From the NCBI GenBank assembly GCA_049968315.1, contig JBMFRA010000001.1, positions 62,044 through 126,043 of the forward strand: a stretch of 64,000 nucleotides of DNA, read 5' to 3'. Made by a program: the position numbers and the translations under genes. The notes under the pieces are model-generated. The model ran no database searches, had not been told where the DNA came from, and saw only the letters and a program-made list of their open reading frames with translations. Of this stretch, positions 18,999 to 60,079 are shown in pieces (within the stretch, counting starts at the first letter, position 1; every line of letters begins with the position of its first letter). The stretch is from Acidobacteriota bacterium (GTDB lineage Bacteria > Acidobacteriota > UBA4820 > DSQY01).

Positions 18999-20366
18999 TC
19001 AGCCGCGGAACCAGCAGGGTCCGTAACAGTCGGGCTGGTTGGTGATCCGTTTCACCCCCGAGCCGTCCCACCGCATGATGTAGATCTGGTAAGAGCCGGA
19101 GCGGTTGCTGGAAAAAGCCAGGTACCGGCCGTCGGGGGACCAGGAGGGCGATTCGCTGTTTCCCGGCCCGTCGGTGAGGTAGGTCACCTCGCCGCTGTTG
19201 AGGTCCATCACGGCGATGTCGAAGTGGCCGTTGCGGAAGGTGCTGTAGGCGATCTTGTCCCCCCGGGGGGACCAGGCGGGCTGGTCGCACCGCCCGCTTC
19301 CCTCGGGGGAGATCCGTTTCACGTTGGCGCCGTCCCGGTCCATCACGTAGATCTGGGGGGAGCCGGAGCGGTCGGAGGTGAAGGCGATCTTCTGGTCGTC
19401 GGGGGACCAGGTGGGTGCCGTGTCGATGGCCCAGGAGACGGTGAGGCGCGTGAGGGCGCGGCTCTCGAGGTTGAGGAGCCAGACGTCGGGGTTCCCCGCC
19501 CGGGAGGAGCAGAAGGCCACGAAGCGCCCGTCGTGGGAGAAGCGGGGATTGGCGTTGAGGCCCTCCCCTTCGCCGTAGAGTTTGGTCCTCCGCCCCTGGC
19601 GGTCCAGGAGGAAGAGCTCCTGGCGGTCCTTGAGGATGGAGGTGAAGACCATCCGGTCCCCCTTGGGGCTCACGTCGGGGGTGACGTTGAGCTGGCCCAT
19701 GGCCGTGAGGCGGATGAGCCCCTTGCCGTCGTAGTCGCAGAGGAAGATGTCCTCGGTGGCCCCCAGGTGGGAGGTGAAGAGGATCTGGCTCGTGGGGAAG
19801 GTCCCGGCCCCGAAGAGGTAATCCAGGATCACGGCGGAGAGGTTGTGGGCCAGGGTTCGGAAGTCGGACTCGGGGCCCTTGATCCGCTTTCCCGTCACCA
19901 TCTCCTTGCGCTTGACGTCGAAGAGGCGCCCCTCCAGGGTGAGCTGGCCCTCCTGGGCGTGGAGGGTGGAGAGGAGGAGGTAGTCGGCGTTCATGGCCTT
20001 CCAGGCGTCGTAGTCCACCCGGTCCTCGAGGTTCATGCCGGAAAAGAGCGCCGGGTCCACCAGGCGGAAGTAGCCGGAGAAGTCCAGGTCGTCGGCGACG
20101 ATGGAGAGGATCTCCCGGCCCTGGACGGCGGTTTGCCCGTCGGTCTTGCAGGGGGGTACGGCGATGGCGGCGCGGGTGAAACCGCTCTCGGTGATGACGC
20201 CGGTGATCTGGTTCCCCTGGGGAACGGCCCCGGGGGCCGGCGGGGGAGAGGGCGGGGTCTGGGCCAGGAGTGCCAGGGAGGCCCCGAGGAAAAACGCGAG
20301 GGGGGCCGCTTTCACCATGGTGGCCGGCATCGGCGCACCGGGTGCCCGGTTTCCGTCGTTTCGCAT
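18999..20366 (-). CDS. tolB: Tol-Pal beta-propeller protein TolB
   Basis: Signal peptide, TolB-N segment (DDLDFSGYF) and multiple PD40 repeats (PxWSPDG). Start uncertain. Confidence 0.85.
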   Translation of the reverse strand: MRNDGNRAPGAPMPATMVKAAPLAFFLGASLALLAQTPPSPPPAPGAVPQGNQITGVITESGFTRAAIAVPPCKTDGQTAVQGREILSIVADDLDFSGYFRLVDPALFSGMNLEDRVDYDAWKAMNADYLLLSTLHAQEGQLTLEGRLFDVKRKEMVTGKRIKGPESDFRTLAHNLSAVILDYLFGAGTFPTSQILFTSHLGATEDIFLCDYDGKGLIRLTAMGQLNVTPDVSPKGDRMVFTSILKDRQELFLLDRQGRRTKLYGEGEGLNANPRFSHDGRFVAFCSSRAGNPDVWLLNLESRALTRLTVSWAIDTAPTWSPDDQKIAFTSDRSGSPQIYVMDRDGANVKRISPEGSGRCDQPAWSPRGDKIAYSTFRNGHFDIAVMDLNSGEVTYLTDGPGNSESPSWSPDGRYLAFSSNRSGSYQIYIMRWDGSGVKRITNQPDCYGPCWFRG

Positions 20367-39132: not shown

Positions 39133-40914
39133 CTACTCCTCGTCGTTCCTCTGAAAGCCGCTGAAGTCCACCACGTCCCCCAGGCTCACCCGCCCGTCTT
39201 CGGGAGAGGGGCGGTAGGAGCCGTCCTCGTCCTTGTCCCGCATCTGGCGCTCGCGGCGCTGGCCTTCCTTGAGGGAGAGGCCGATGCGCTTCTCGTGGGG
39301 CTCGAGGCGGATGATCTTGAAGGGGTAGGACTGGCCCACCTCCACCACCTCGGAGCAGGTGGTGATGTGCTTGTCGGAGAGTTCGGAGATGTGCACCAGA
39401 CCCTCCACCCCGTCCCCGAGGTCCACGAAGGCCCCGAAGTCCACGATCTTGGTCACCGTTCCGGGGACCACGTCGCCCACGTAATGGGACTGGAAGAACT
39501 GGTCCCAGATGTCGGGCTGGAGCGCCTTGATGCTCAGGGAAAGGCGCTGGTTGACGGCGTCGATGTTGGTGATGACCGCCTCCACTTCGTCGCCCTTCTT
39601 CAGGATCTCGCTGGGGTGGCTGATCCGTTTCCAGGAGAGGTCGGAGATGTGGACCAGTCCGTCCACGCCGTCCAGGACCTCCACGAAGACGCCGAAGTCG
39701 GTGATGTTCCGGACCTTGCCCCGGACCCGGTCCCCCTCCCGGTAGGTTTCGGTGATGATGTCCCAGGGGTTGGGCTCGGCCTGCTTGAGGCCCAGGGAGA
39801 TGCGCTGGGCCTCGGGGTCCACGTCCAGCACCACCACCTCCACCATGTCGCCCACGTTGAGGACGGCGGAGGGGTGCTTCACCTTCTTGGTCCAGGACAT
39901 CTCGGAGACGTGGATCATCCCCTCGATTCCCGGCTCCAGCTCGACGAAGGCGCCGTAGTTGGTCAGGGAGATGACCTGGCCCCGCACCTTCATGCCGATG
40001 GGGTACTTCTCCGCCACGTTGGTCCAGGGGGAGGGCTCCAGCTGCTTGAAGCCCAGCTGGAGCTTGCCGGTCTCCTCGTCGAAGTTGAGGACCAGCACGT
40101 CCACCTGGTCCCCCACCTGGAAGATCTCGGAGGGGTGGTTCACGCGCTTCCAGGACATGTCGGTCACGTGCAGCAGGCCGTCGATGCCGCCGAGGTCCAC
40201 GAAGGCGCCGAAGTTGGTGAGGTTCTTGATGGTCCCCCGGAGGGGCATGCCCTTCTGGATGGCCTCCAGGATGCGTTCCTTCTGCACGGAGACCTTTTCT
40301 TCGAGGTAGGCCTTCCGGGAGAGGACGATGTTGCCCCGCTTCCGGTTGACCTTGATGACCTTCATCTCGACCTCCTGGCCCTTGAGGGCGCGGAGGTTTC
40401 GGATGGGCTGCAGATCCACCAGGGATCCGGGGAGGAAGGCGCGGACCCCCACGTCCACCGCCAGGCCGCCCTTCACCCGGTCCAGGATGATGCCCTTGAT
40501 GGGGCGGCCCTCCTTGTAGGCGCGCTCCACCTCTTCCCAGGCCTTCATCTTCTGGGCCTTGACCTTGCTGAGGACCACGTGGCCGTTCTGGTCCTCCAGG
40601 CGCTCGAGGAAGACCTCCACCTCGTCGCCGGGGGCAACGGTCATCTCGCCCAGGGCGTTGAGGAACTCCTCCTTGGGCACCACCCCTTCGCTCTTGAGGC
40701 CGACGTCCACCAGGACGTCGGTGGGGGTGATGGCCACCACCTTCCCCCGGATGAGGTGGCGCTCGCTGTGGTCCGCCGCCTGGCTCTTGAGGAGAGCCCC
40801 CATATCCACCCGGCTCTCTTCCCCGATGTTGTCGGAGCTGAGCTCGAGCCACTCCTGGGGCACCTCGAAGGGCGCACCCGGACCCTTCGGGTCCCTTTCT
40901 TCCGTAACCGACAT
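39133..40914 (-). CDS. rpsA: 30S ribosomal protein S1
   Basis: Six S1 repeats (FGAFV...GLxHxSxLSW). Confidence 0.97.
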   Translation of the reverse strand: MSVTEERDPKGPGAPFEVPQEWLELSSDNIGEESRVDMGALLKSQAADHSERHLIRGKVVAITPTDVLVDVGLKSEGVVPKEEFLNALGEMTVAPGDEVEVFLERLEDQNGHVVLSKVKAQKMKAWEEVERAYKEGRPIKGIILDRVKGGLAVDVGVRAFLPGSLVDLQPIRNLRALKGQEVEMKVIKVNRKRGNIVLSRKAYLEEKVSVQKERILEAIQKGMPLRGTIKNLTNFGAFVDLGGIDGLLHVTDMSWKRVNHPSEIFQVGDQVDVLVLNFDEETGKLQLGFKQLEPSPWTNVAEKYPIGMKVRGQVISLTNYGAFVELEPGIEGMIHVSEMSWTKKVKHPSAVLNVGDMVEVVVLDVDPEAQRISLGLKQAEPNPWDIITETYREGDRVRGKVRNITDFGVFVEVLDGVDGLVHISDLSWKRISHPSEILKKGDEVEAVITNIDAVNQRLSLSIKALQPDIWDQFFQSHYVGDVVPGTVTKIVDFGAFVDLGDGVEGLVHISELSDKHITTCSEVVEVGQSYPFKIIRLEPHEKRIGLSLKEGQRRERQMRDKDEDGSYRPSPEDGRVSLGDVVDFSGFQRNDEE

Positions 40915-56173: not shown

Positions 56174-56584
56174 TTACGTCCTGGCTCCCGGCCGGGGGTC
56201 GCTTCCCTGGGACTCGTACTTGGAGGGGCATTTCACGATCAACTCCCGGCCTTCGAAGGTTCCCGAGGGGCCCATCCGGCCGTCCACCACCACCTCCAGC
56301 CCCTCCTTGAAGGCGTCGGGGATGGCCCCCCGGTAGTGGACGGGCACCTTCTTCTCGCCGTCGGAGACCGCGAACCAGAGGTTCAAGCGGTCCTCCGACA
56401 TCCGGACGCTGCCCGGCTCGATGACGCCCTTGAGGCGCAGGCGCCCCCCCTGGACGGCGGGGTCCGCCAGGAACTGGGTGGGGCTGTAGTAGTACACCGG
56501 TTTGGCCGTCCCGGCGCTGGAGAGGAGGAACAACGCCACGGCGCCGGCGACGATGATGAGCGCCACGGTGATCTTCACGCGCAT
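56174..56584 (-). CDS. ccmE: Heme chaperone CcmE, CxxxY variant
   Basis: YYYSP, YRGAIPDAFKEG and KCPSKY motifs. Confidence 0.92.
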   Translation of the reverse strand: MRVKITVALIIVAGAVALFLLSSAGTAKPVYYYSPTQFLADPAVQGGRLRLKGVIEPGSVRMSEDRLNLWFAVSDGEKKVPVHYRGAIPDAFKEGLEVVVDGRMGPSGTFEGRELIVKCPSKYESQGSDPRPGART

Positions 56585-56632
56585 GGTCACCTCCAGGGCC
56601 TTCCGCCCGGGGGGCCGAAGGCCCGACCTCTC

Positions 56633-56661
56633 ACTGTACCTGGCAACGCCCCGTCCGTCAA
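56633..56661 (-). promoter_or_regulatory. Sigma70-type promoter of ccmE
   Basis: TTGACG-17nt-TACAGT. Confidence 0.55.
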
Positions 56662-56675
56662 AATATTCGGTGCCG

Positions 56676-57296
56676 TCACCGGGAAGACGCCTCTGCGCGG
56701 CGGCGGAGGGCCGGCACCTCCTGGAGGGGGTTTCCCATCTCGGCGAAGAGCCGGATGGCCGCGACCCCGGCGGCCCCCGCCCGGAGGACCGTCCCCAGCC
56801 GGTCGCGGGAGACCCCGCCCAGGGCCAGGACGGGGATGGGGCTCTGGCGGCAGGCCTCCTGCAGGGCCTCGAGACCCAAGGGGGGGCCGTAGGGAGCCTT
56901 GGAGGGGGTTGGAAAGACGGGGCCCAACGTCACCGCGTCCGCCCCTTCCTCCGCGGCCCTCTGGACCTCCGCCAGGTCGTGGCAGGAGCGGACCACCAGG
57001 AACGGAGGGGGACAGAGGCGCCGTACCTCCCCCGTGGGAAGCCCCTGGGCGGGGAGGTGGACGCCCGCCGCCCCCGAGGCCAGGGCCAGGTCGGGGCGGC
57101 CGTTGACGAGGAGGCGGGTGCCGAAGCGGAGGGCCTCCCAGCGGAGGGCCCGCAGCACCTCGAAGAGGGCCCGGTCGGGCAGGTCCTTCTCCCGGAGCTG
57201 GAGCCAGTCCACCCCGGCCCGGATGAGGGCGGAGAGCTGGCCCAGCAGGCCGCCCTCCCCCGCCAGGCGCCGGTCGGAGATGGCGTAGAGGATCAC
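56676..57296 (-). CDS. thiE: Thiamine phosphate synthase / TenI family
   Basis: QLREK, GVHL, SCH, GPVFPTPSK and ALGG motifs. Confidence 0.82.
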   Translation of the reverse strand: MILYAISDRRLAGEGGLLGQLSALIRAGVDWLQLREKDLPDRALFEVLRALRWEALRFGTRLLVNGRPDLALASGAAGVHLPAQGLPTGEVRRLCPPPFLVVRSCHDLAEVQRAAEEGADAVTLGPVFPTPSKAPYGPPLGLEALQEACRQSPIPVLALGGVSRDRLGTVLRAGAAGVAAIRLFAEMGNPLQEVPALRRRAEASSR

Positions 57297-57640
57297 CGCC
57301 GCCGCTCCTCCAGGCGGCCCGCCAGGCGGGCCCCCCGCTCGATCCGCACCTTTTCGCAGCGCAGGCTTCCCTGAAAGTCCGCCCCCGGGAGAAAGACCGC
57401 CCCTCCGGCTTCCACCGCCCCCCGGTAGACGCCAGAAAGGGTGAAGGCCCGTGCCCGCACCTCGCCCTCCACCCTGGCGCCCCGGGCGACGGTGATCTCT
57501 CCCCGGCAGCGGACGGGGCCCTTCAGGCGGCCGTGGACCTCCAGGTCGGCGGCTCCCTCGAACTCGCCTTCGAAGGAAGTCCTCTCGGAGAGGAGGGAAC
57601 GGGGCGGCGGAGGAGGCGGCGATTTCTGGAACCAGCCCAT
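57293..57640 (-). CDS. Bactofilin (polymer-forming cytoskeletal protein)
   Basis: Beta-helix pattern TSFEGEF...LEVHGRLKG...VEGEV...IERGARLAG. Confidence 0.8.
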   Translation of the reverse strand: MGWFQKSPPPPPPRSLLSERTSFEGEFEGAADLEVHGRLKGPVRCRGEITVARGARVEGEVRARAFTLSGVYRGAVEAGGAVFLPGADFQGSLRCEKVRIERGARLAGRLEERRR

Positions 57641-57746
57641 GGTCTTCTCCCTGCACGGGAGGCGGAGTGTACGGGAGTCGCGGGGGCATTTCAAGGGGAA
57701 AGGGAAGGGCCGCGGGAGGGAAGGGTTGCTGCGAAGGAAGCAGCGA

Positions 57747-57777
57747 AAGGAGGGAGGGCCGGAAGCCCTCCCTCCTT
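57747..57777 (-). terminator. Strong hairpin, probable terminator of the tRNA-Gly/repeat transcript
   Basis: Perfect 13-bp stem AAGGAGGGAGGGC/GCCCTCCCTCCTT with a 5-nt loop, just past the last repeat; the T-tract is short. Confidence 0.55.
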
Positions 57778-57784
57778 GCCAGCC

Positions 57785-58303
57785 TGGAGCGGGCGACGGG
57801 TTTCGAACCTACGCGCCGTAGCGTGCTCGCGGGCGTCGGAGTCCGCCCGCTTGCGCGCGCAACGGCGCCTACGGTTCCCGGGGTGGGTCTCTCCCCCACG
57901 CCGGCCTAACGGCGGCCGCTCCCTCTGCGGTCGCGGCCTCGTAACGGCCGGCGGGGGGCTCCCACCCTTCGAAACCCGCAGGATGCCGGCGGTGGGGTTT
58001 TGAGCCTCGTGATGGGAGAGGGAAAAGAAGTTGGAGCGGGCGACGGGTTTCGAACCTACGCGCCGTAGCGTGCTCGCGGGCGTCGGAGTCCGCCCGCTTG
58101 CGCGCGCAACGGCGCCTACGGTTCCCGGGGTGGGTCTCTCCCCCACGCCGGCCTAACGGCGGCCGCTCCCTCTGCGGTCGCGGCCTCGTAACGGCCGGCG
58201 GGGGGCTCCCACCCTTCGAAACCCGCAGGATGCCGGCGGTGGGGTTTTGAGCCTCGTGATGGGAGAGGGAAAAGAAGTTGGAGCGGGCGACGGGTTTCGA
58301 ACC
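57785..58303 (-). repeat. tRNA-linked tandem repeat: 2 x 247 bp, bounded by three copies of the 25-bp tRNA-Gly 3' end
   Basis: 57785-58031 and 58032-58278 read identically; TGGAGCGGGCGACGGGTTTCGAACC starts at 57785, 58032 and 58279. Confidence 0.95.
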
Positions 58304-58354
58304 CGCGACCTCAAGCTTGGGAAGCTCGCGCTCTACCGGCTGAGCTACGCCCGC
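58279..58354 (-). tRNA. tRNA-Gly(CCC)
   Basis: GCGGGCG/CGCCCGC acceptor stem, anticodon loop TTCCCAA, GGTTCGAAACC T-arm, U73 and CCA. Confidence 0.97.
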
Positions 58355-58366
58355 CTCCGAGGGGGG

Positions 58367-58396
58367 AGGATAGCAAAGGGCCAGGTGCGCCGTCAA
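58367..58396 (-). promoter_or_regulatory. Sigma70-type promoter of tRNA-Gly
   Basis: TTGACG-18nt-TATCCT with a TGn extension. Confidence 0.6.
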
Positions 58397-58546
58397 TAGG
58401 AGGCCCTGGTCCCACGTCGTGCCGGCGGCGCAGTCTTGCGGCACCGGTGGAAGGGCCGCCGCGCCGCGGGGGCGTTGCCAGGAAGGGCGGGCCTCTGTAG
58501 AATGGGCCGGCGCCGAGGCCCGAAGGCCTGCGCCGGGGGAGAGACC

Positions 58547-60079
58547 ATGGCGAGACGAGCGGGGGTCCTGTTGGCGGGGTTGGTGGCCCTGGCCCTGCCC
58601 CTTTGGGGACTCGAGGTCAAGGGGCCGGGCGGCTCCTTCCGGCTCCGCGACCGCTCTTCCCAGGGGGTTCGGTGGGTCTGCGCCGACGAGCTGGCCCGCG
58701 CCCTGGGGGGGAGCACCTCCAAAGACCCCGTTTCGGCCTACCCCGTGCTCACGGTGGGAGGGAAGCGCATCCTCGTCTCCACCGCCTCGCCCATGGTGTC
58801 GGTGGAGGGAAGGATCGTTCGGCTCGGCAGGTCCGCCCGGGAGGCCGAAGGCTGCCTCTGGCTCCCCGAGGAGTTTCTGACGGCGGTGCTCCCGCAGGTA
58901 CTGGGAGGGCCCGTTTCGGTGGGAGGGAGCCCCGACACTCCCCAATCCCAGCCCCCTCCGGAGGAAGCGGCGGCGGGGCGGGTCGCGGTGGAGGTCGCCG
59001 TGGGAGCGGACCTGGTGAAGGTGACCCTCGCCGGGCCGGCGGCTTCTCAGGCCCAGGTGGCGCAGAAGGGACGGGAGGTGGAAGTCCGGCTCCCCGCGGG
59101 GGCCTTCTCCGCCCCCGCCCGGGACCTGGGGAAGGGGATCGTGGAGCGGGTGGCTCCCGACCAGGAGGGGCGGCTCCTCCGGATTCGCCTCGGCGAGCGT
59201 TTCGGCGGCATGGAGACGGAGAAGAAGGCCACCCCCCCGGCGGTGACCCTCCTCTTCCGGGGACAGGCCCAGGAGTTGCCCGCCCCCGAGACGCCGGCGG
59301 TTCCGCCTGGAGTACCCGGGGACAATCCAACCCCCCCGCCGGTGGAAGCGGCGGCGGTGGCGCAAGGCTTCCCCGTGAAGACGCCCGCGGTGGACGTGGT
59401 GGTGATCGATCCGGGCCACGGCGGTTCCGACACCGGGGCCCTGGGTCCCAAGGGCGTCGCCGAGAAGGACCTAACCCTGGCGCTGGCCAAGAAGCTGGAG
59501 GTCCTCTTGGAAAAGAGGGGGTTCCGGGTGGTCCTCACCCGCGACGGCGACACCTCCGTGCCCTTGAAACAGCGGGCGGCCCTGGCCAACTTCAACCAGG
59601 CCGACCTCTTCCTCTCGGTCCATATGAACGCCTCCCCCGCGCCCTCCGCCAGGGGGCCGGAGGTGTATTTCATGAGCCAGCAGGCCACGGACCTCTGGTC
59701 CCGGGAGCTGGCGGAAAAGGAGAACGCCTCCGGCGGCGGCGCACCCCCGGGGGGCGGCGGCCTGGACCTTGTCCTCTGGGACCTGGCCCAAACGGCCCAC
59801 CTCCAGGAGAGCGCCTTCCTGGCGGAGTCCATCCAGAACGCCCTCAACGGCCTCATGGGCACCGACCGGCGGGCGGTGCGGCAGGCTCCCTTCGCCGTGT
59901 TGGAGGGGGCCACCATGCCGGCGGTTCTGGTGGAGGTGGCCTTTTTGAGCAACCCCGAGGAGTCCAGGAAGGCCAGCGACCCGGCCTTCCAGGACCGGGT
60001 GGCGGAACGGCTCGCCGATGCCCTGTCCGCCTTCAAGGAGCGTTATGAGAGTCCCGCGGCGGTGTCCGGCGCTCCGTAG
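58547..60079 (+). CDS. N-acetylmuramoyl-L-alanine amidase (Amidase_3)
   Basis: Signal peptide; IDPGHGG, EKDL, SVHMN and PAVLVEVAFLSN motifs. Confidence 0.92.
   Translation: MARRAGVLLAGLVALALPLWGLEVKGPGGSFRLRDRSSQGVRWVCADELARALGGSTSKDPVSAYPVLTVGGKRILVSTASPMVSVEGRIVRLGRSAREAEGCLWLPEEFLTAVLPQVLGGPVSVGGSPDTPQSQPPPEEAAAGRVAVEVAVGADLVKVTLAGPAASQAQVAQKGREVEVRLPAGAFSAPARDLGKGIVERVAPDQEGRLLRIRLGERFGGMETEKKATPPAVTLLFRGQAQELPAPETPAVPPGVPGDNPTPPPVEAAAVAQGFPVKTPAVDVVVIDPGHGGSDTGALGPKGVAEKDLTLALAKKLEVLLEKRGFRVVLTRDGDTSVPLKQRAALANFNQADLFLSVHMNASPAPSARGPEVYFMSQQATDLWSRELAEKENASGGGAPPGGGGLDLVLWDLAQTAHLQESAFLAESIQNALNGLMGTDRRAVRQAPFAVLEGATMPAVLVEVAFLSNPEESRKASDPAFQDRVAERLADALSAFKERYESPAAVSGAP

Follow-up and report, generated by a model that had tools for sequence, protein, structure and literature searches.

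What does it mean when a tRNA gene is followed by perfect repeats that each end in a copy of its own 3' end? The question is raised by a tRNA-Gly(CCC) gene in the 64,000-nucleotide stretch of DNA analyzed here (the window), behind which a first-pass annotation had described two identical 247-bp units. The annotation offered two answers, namely, a nonautonomous mini-element that integrates repeatedly at the tRNA or a cotranscribed array that is processed into CCA-ending RNAs in the manner of the Escherichia coli tyrT repeats. We confirmed the two units themselves: Tandem Repeats Finder reported an array at 57785-58303 with a period of 247, 2.1 copies, 100% matches, 0 indels, and a score of 1038, and a separate repeat search returned the copies 57785-58031 and 58032-58278, both at 100%. 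In the sense of the tRNA the order is tRNA (58354-58279), unit 1, and unit 2, and the features of the locus are as follows.

58367..58396, minus strand: predicted sigma-70-like promoter of the tRNA-Gly transcription unit (TTGACG, 18 nt, TATCCT)
58279..58354, minus strand: tRNA-Gly(CCC) with encoded CCA (ARAGORN; Rfam tRNA model, 67.8 bits, match 58282-58354)
58278-58032, minus strand: unit 1, the first behind the tRNA in the tRNA sense
57785..58031, minus strand: unit 2, 100% identical to unit 1 (leader 58031-57980, core 57979-57796, tail 57809-57785)
57747..57777, minus strand: strong 14-bp hairpin after the last CCA (-36.5 kcal/mol, z -4.71)
57641-57293, minus strand: bactofilin coding sequence (Pfam PF04519, E 2e-19) with its own promoter-like site at 57694-57666

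Both units end in GGTTCGAAACCCGTCGCCCGCTCCA, which is an exact copy of the final 25 nt of the tRNA-Gly, as the annotation had stated. This tail spans the last 2 nt of the 5' T-stem strand, the T-loop, the 3' acceptor strand, and CCA. The 25-nt block occurs three times at the locus, and direct repeats of the tRNA 3' part flank the units, which bears out the att-duplication geometry that had been recognized. The strong hairpin placed 3' of the array was likewise found, at 57777-57747; it has a weak U-run and fails the terminator scan (threshold, 5 T in 8), and it is likely the end of the tRNA-Gly transcription unit. At the other end, a consensus scan gave the promoter-like site 9 of 12 consensus matches and a TG ahead of the -10 hexamer. 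The units are bounded by a conserved promoter-tRNA on one side and this strong hairpin on the other, and the promoter and terminator scan detected neither promoter-like nor terminator-like sites inside them. The junction between the end of one unit and the start of the next should assemble only from a sample that contained two or more copies in tandem, or a circle. ARAGORN detected three tRNAs in the window, of which the other two also encode CCA; in contrast to the tRNA-Gly locus, tRNA-Lys(CUU) has an ordinary intrinsic terminator, a short GC hairpin and T run, behind it (51646-51610, minus strand).

The units do not appear to code for protein. No Pfam family was found in the two longest open reading frames (ORFs) across them, their length of 247 is not a multiple of 3, and GC content by codon position is flat (0.65/0.79/0.71), whereas GC3 reaches 0.84 to 0.94 in four neighbor genes. 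A Pfam scan of 56 distinct ORFs across the 64-kb window revealed no integrase, transposase, or reverse transcriptase, so that the absence of an integrase or a convincing ORF, claimed earlier, was upheld. Long spurious ORFs run on both strands of this high-GC region (e.g., 57869-59419, minus strand), including one of 516 amino acids (aa) that passes antisense to the amidase gene and through the tRNA and units; ORF length is therefore a poor guide at this locus, and the real genes are separated by GC3. Housekeeping genes flank the locus: bactofilin, thiamine-phosphate synthase, and reading frames read as ccmE and ccmF (outside the Pfam-scanned set) to one side and genes for an Amidase_3 protein, a Germane-domain protein, and glutamate racemase to the other. 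The units do not differ from these surroundings in GC content. Two other direct-repeat families in the window, D10 (39416-40214, spacing of about 258 nt) and D3 (19041-19415, spacing of 267 nt), fall within an S1-domain protein (39136-40914) and a TolB-like PD40 protein (19002-20366), respectively, and are protein domain repeats, not DNA elements. We also considered a MITE or REP-type dispersed repeat as the identity of the unit and rejected it, since the unit lacks terminal inverted repeats and has no additional copy in the 64 kb.

What the units do show is a strongly predicted fold. In the tRNA sense, the whole unit has a minimum free energy (MFE) of -141.7 kcal/mol (z -5.26), compared with a z of -2.71 in antisense, and a covariance model of the unit (R1) scored 219 bits in the tRNA sense versus 27 to 29 bits in antisense. 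The parts of unit 1 are as follows.

58227..58278, minus strand: leader, 52 nt, pyrimidine-rich and unstructured (-3.6 kcal/mol, z +0.75)
58043..58226, minus strand: structured core with a predicted Y fold
58226-58218, minus strand: 5' strand of the closing helix P1, predicted
58214-58128, minus strand: hairpin A, about 87 nt
58124-58052, minus strand: hairpin B, about 73 nt
58051-58043, minus strand: 3' strand of P1, equal to the T-loop and 3' T-stem part of the tail
58032..58056, minus strand: tail, identical to the 25 nt at the 3' end of the tRNA

P1 is predicted to join an upstream GGGUUUC with the GAAACCC of the tail, with nine pairs in the window that include the tRNA's own T-stem. Hairpins A and B would sit on P1 and form a three-way junction, i.e., a Y shape, and the last 11 to 13 nt of the unit (58042-58032), comprising the acceptor 3' strand and the UCCA end, are predicted to be unpaired. 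Some local features of this fold deserve mention. The tip stem of hairpin B, GCGGGCG/CGCCCGC (58094-58073), is identical to the acceptor stem of the tRNA-Gly and might compete for the 3' tail of the unit (58042-58032). In the MFE fold, a GCCGGC in the leader (58237-58232) pairs with the acceptor strand of the tail (58041-58036) at 5 of 6 positions, a pairing that is absent in the relative described below; together with P1, it resembles in the window a decayed acceptor/T-arm minihelix. Several more specific identities were rejected. A kink-turn in hairpin A fails since the nonbulged strand reads AG or AAA where GA is needed. Hairpins A and B do not represent a MITE inserted in the T-loop with a TTCGAA duplication, as they lack terminal inverted repeats and have no other copies. 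A guide RNA of the TnpB, Cas12, or bridge-RNA type was dismissed, since there is no nuclease or recombinase gene, the "guide" would lie inside P1, and large internal loops are lacking.

We further investigated whether this fold is maintained in a relative. A scan of a genome collection with the middle 33-mer of the tRNA (exact match) returned 70 loci, mostly in metagenome-assembled genomes (MAGs) of Eisenbacteria and Acidobacteriota; the window's own contig is not among them. One of these, JBBILR010000007.1 from an Acidobacteriota bacterium (L043), is the sole locus of the 70 with an identical tRNA and a downstream duplicate of its tail, and it is syntenic with the window on the amidase side. 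At the other 69 tRNA-Gly(CCC) loci, the tRNA differs in sequence and its tail is not duplicated within 2 kb; these loci are too distant to serve as empty sites. The first-pass annotation had suggested searching relatives for the unit and had counted a lack of homologues against its reading; the unit at the syntenic tRNA of L043 is such a homologue. The identities between the window and L043 are as follows.

tRNA: 100% (76/76)
core without the tail (about 170 nt): 90.6%
flanking coding DNA: 81.4%
promoter region: 79%, with both hexamers unchanged upstream of the L043 tRNA
leader: no better than shuffles, 378 of 500 of which equal its score

A drifted leader next to a conserved core looks like vertical descent under selection. 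The idea that the leader is a decayed 5' part of a tRNA was dropped, because the leaders of the window and L043 are not significantly alike and the similarity to a tRNA exists by eye only. The L043 unit has a period of 253 nt and the same Y fold (z -5.13), and in both loci P1 is predicted to be built with the tail copy, leaving the NCCA end unpaired.

The changes between the two cores bear directly on the fold. An alignment of the window and L043 gave 63 consensus pairs in RNAalifold. Sixteen columns of the 196-column core are substituted; 10 of them are paired columns, which make up five fully compensated pairs, and the remaining 6 are unpaired, while none of the 63 pairs is broken or changed on one side. 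Not one of 200,000 random placements of 16 substitutions gave five or more double-changed pairs, and when the partners were shifted by 1 to 3 columns, no compensated pair remained and pairing did not exceed 44%. The shuffle control built into the tool has a floor of 15/500 because the alignment has two rows only, and the covariation support as a whole rests on two independent DNA-level sequences, the window and L043. All of the compensated pairs lie within hairpins A and B; P1 and helices 4, 5, and 7 are invariant and so carry no covariation support. Since all 63 consensus pairs are Watson-Crick, with zero G-U, they name neither a strand nor an RNA. The substitution pattern points to a core under selection for structure.

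Behind the unit of L043 (L043:2304-2438), a hairpin and T-run directly follow the CCA, and then a second, diverged, AT-richer unit begins, inside which the contig ends, 135 nt past the first unit. The first 80 nt of this second unit are 77.6% identical to the start of unit 1, a score that none of 500 shuffles reached. The 5' strand of its P1, GGGAUUC, would fit a GAAUCCC T-loop tail and thereby points to another tRNA type.

Additional members were recognized through spurious translations. We used the sense ORF 58146-57694 as a query against 1.84 billion protein representatives and obtained P0001 (256 aa, E 3.5e-44, three matched stretches) and P0002 (138 aa, E 7.6e-6); a third match, P0003, was discarded as an unrelated repeat protein. 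The antisense-frame query had no matches, and word-based searches yielded nothing beyond the matches of the sense ORF. The features of P0001 and P0002 are known from amino acid strings alone, in which third codon positions and indels are not visible. Read in this way, P0001 starts with a tRNA-like end ("...WGFESPLRHQ"), with a T-stem that would be paired throughout; its unit 1 ends in "...RRFESRFPLQ," a Gly-like tail, and its unit 2, 84 codons further on, ends in "...RRFESPLRHQ," which repeats the first tail. The translation of P0002, which comes from another organism, reads as the core, then a third tail type, and then a diverged second unit of the type found behind unit 1 of L043. The nonidentical tandem units in P0001 imply that tandem arrays are real in this family. 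When unit 2 of P0001 was threaded on the codons of L043, A in column 16 and T in column 97 gave an A-U pair; this pair would therefore occur in three states, U-A in the window, C-G in L043, and A-U in P0001, the last of these deduced from the translation. The unpaired end of the tail matches the neighboring tRNA in the window, L043, and P0001, and the tRNA type appears to be another one in P0001 and P0002. A role for the tip of hairpin B as a conserved partner of the tail was abandoned, because its translation is unchanged in P0001 despite the different tails.

All 4,227 Rfam families, searched at E values up to 10 against 3 kb around the locus (56500-59500), matched only at the tRNA. A blastn search in distant mode with the 721-nt locus against 72,556 plasmid and 50,697 phage records found nothing beyond the tRNA part (query positions 64-165), which matched at 173 plasmid and 268 phage records. 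A repeat search, blastn-short, and model R1 found no further copy of the unit in the 64-kb window, and R1 found no further significant copy in the window plus the 70 loci, the best extra match being the truncated second unit of L043 (17 bits, E 0.19). Our literature searches on similar tRNA-linked repeats in bacteria found no description of this family.

Based on these results, we propose that the units are a new RtT-like family, unrelated in sequence to RtT itself, of structured noncoding RNA modules that are cotranscribed with a tRNA, and we give this reading about an even chance. It is favored by the compensated changes, a core conserved above its coding flanks, the drifted leader, the position of the units, the strand bias, and the parallel with RtT. 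Of the two answers first offered, the rtT-like array is the one that gained, through its architecture and its conserved, compensated fold, whereas the mini-element has points on both sides. In the proposed scheme, a transcript from the tRNA-Gly promoter would read through the tRNA and both units to the hairpin at 57777-57747, and each unit would fold into the Y, of which hairpins A and B are backed by compensated changes and P1 is a prediction. The enzymes that trim tRNA 3' ends would also set the 3' ends of the units and free CCA-ending RNAs; we propose shared enzymes because the units end exactly like the tRNA and because the 171-nt rtT RNA of E. coli provides an analogy. The array could grow and shrink by recombination between the 25-nt tails or whole units, which would also keep the tails equal to the neighboring tRNA. 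One point against an RtT-like RNA is that a role in folding leaves the match between tail and tRNA type unexplained, for which recombination at the T-loop is the simpler account.

Such recombination is central to the other answer, according to which the unit is a mini-CIME without genes: the tail, leader, and Y core would form a 247-bp circle, a tyrosine integrase acting in trans would recombine it with the T-loop core of either a tRNA gene or a unit already in place, repeated integration would build the tandem array, and the Y would be a cis-acting feature or an RNA payload. We regard this as possible but doubtful. The 25-nt block, running from the T-stem/T-loop to CCA, has the shape of a known T-loop att core; that of phage Ms6 comprises 26 bases over the T-loop and 3' end (PMC1762012), and the accretion of decayed elements and tandem arrays at one att site is on record (PMC5704250). 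T-loop-core recombination would explain why tails equal the neighboring tRNA, the 100% identity of the two copies in the window and the second, diverged unit behind the first in L043 are consistent with it, and, judging from the translations, the order of tails in P0001 fits a Gly-type circle integrated into the distal core of a resident unit, and P0002 carries the same core with a third tail type. On the other hand, no gene for an integrase, transposase, or reverse transcriptase exists among the 56 distinct window ORFs scanned, the base composition of the units is that of their surroundings, and neither the window nor the plasmid and phage records hold another copy beyond the tRNA part. No empty site was seen among the 70 loci, where the identical-tRNA locus L043 is occupied and the other 69 are too distant to count. 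Moreover, this sole DNA-level relative has its unit at the same syntenic tRNA with a leader that has diverged like neutral DNA, which suggests long residence rather than recent arrival. The RtT-like RNA and mobile-element readings are not mutually exclusive. In a combined and more speculative form, which we think unlikely, these units, and by extension E. coli RtT, would be widespread but unrecognized gene-less RNA cassettes of tRNA transcription units that move between tRNA genes by T-loop-core recombination and gain the tail of the new tRNA at each move, with the Y as a payload or cis-acting part. If the tail changes do reflect movement between tRNA genes, we would be dealing with a minimal mobile unit that carries no gene.

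Two other explanations dispense with a stable RNA. The units could be a cis-acting structured spacer of the tRNA operon that terminates or attenuates transcription, blocks 3' exonucleases, or serves as a platform for processing. Their location between the tRNA and the next promoter, their very stable folds, the Rfam listing of RtT as Cis-reg, and the hairpin with T-run directly behind the CCA of the L043 unit all agree with this; yet a barrier or terminator would need no exact tRNA tail and no conserved three-way junction spread over 170 nt, and the hairpin at 57777-57747 alone could suffice, and we consider a spacer of this kind improbable. We judge it very improbable indeed that a tRNA-Gly duplicate decayed, or an island was deleted, and left the unit behind as a neutral relic, with the tandem copy an assembly artifact. 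The degenerate, acceptor-like GCCGGC kept in the leader, with 5 of 6 pairs to the tail in the MFE fold, and the tRNA's own T-stem inside P1 could be taken as traces of a tRNA, and the L043 contig breaks 135 nt past the unit, as assemblies do at repeats. However, neither ARAGORN nor the Rfam tRNA model detected a tRNA in the units, P0001 holds tandem units that are not identical, and an end-to-start junction should not assemble from a single linear copy. The compensated substitutions and the conservation of the core above the coding flanks exclude neutrality, so that, for the unit itself, the relic reading is largely refuted.

The proposed RtT-like RNA can be compared with three kinds of known systems. 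Integrase islands and CIMEs likewise have a direct repeat of the block from the T-loop to the 3' end, with an intact tRNA on one side; they can form tandem arrays at one att site (PMC5704250); and, according to the translations, our units would share with them the change of tail types with the neighboring tRNA. They differ in that only 222 bp and zero genes lie between the repeats in the window, with no integrase in the 64 kb, no remnants of island genes in the units, and a base composition equal to that of the host, and in that the interior is a structured module, conserved and with compensated changes, as would not be expected of att arms. A second comparison is with spacers of the leuZ type: the 3' external transcribed spacer of E. 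coli leuZ is a functional RNA cut from a tRNA precursor. Like the proposed RNAs of the window, it is a non-tRNA RNA made from a tRNA promoter and freed by tRNA processing, but spacers of this type are short and unrepeated and lack a copy of the tRNA tail.

The closest parallel is RtT (RF00391). To our knowledge, it has been an isolated enterobacterial curiosity with no settled function since its first description, and in older papers rtT RNA is reportedly released by processing and affects the stringent response. The resemblance to the E. coli tyrT repeats, which the first-pass annotation had pointed out, held for the architecture when we analyzed the K-12 locus, though not for the sequence. 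The K-12 tyrT locus has a 178-bp repeat in 3.1 copies with 95% matches and four Rfam RtT matches of 133 to 138 bits, and the 19-nt tail of tRNA-Tyr occurs there six times, i.e., at two tRNAs and four RtT ends. The RtT consensus structure is closed by a helix between an upstream stretch and the T-loop/T-stem part of the tail, and its final 9 nt, up to CCA, are unpaired; the annotated rttR RNA runs from just behind tyrV to such a CCA. A preprint (bioRxiv 10.1101/2024.07.17.603846) describes rtT RNA as freed by processing and as affecting the stringent response.

Both families are thus tandem arrays directly behind a tRNA gene and in the same orientation, their units end in the exact 3' end of the tRNA from the T-arm to CCA (19 nt in E. 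coli and 25 nt in the window), and both have a closing helix on the tail copy, an unpaired CCA end of 9 to 13 nt, and branched hairpins inside. The two families also differ. The window units have no sequence or covariance-model similarity to RF00391, which gave no match in 56500-59500 at E values up to 10 (gathering score, 45 bits); the tRNA is Gly(CCC) instead of Tyr; the unit is 247 nt long with two long hairpins on a three-way junction, versus 178 nt; the copies are 100% identical, versus 95%; there is no tpr-like ORF; and the host is related to an Acidobacteriota MAG, not to an enterobacterium. Because the RF00391 model has no match, the likeness is one of design, not of shown descent. The window would contain a second family on the RtT plan, unrelated in sequence and from a distant phylum, which suggests that this plan is selected in its own right and is not the accident of one locus. 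With its compensated pairs and changing tails, the family provides comparative material on the RtT plan beyond E. coli alone.
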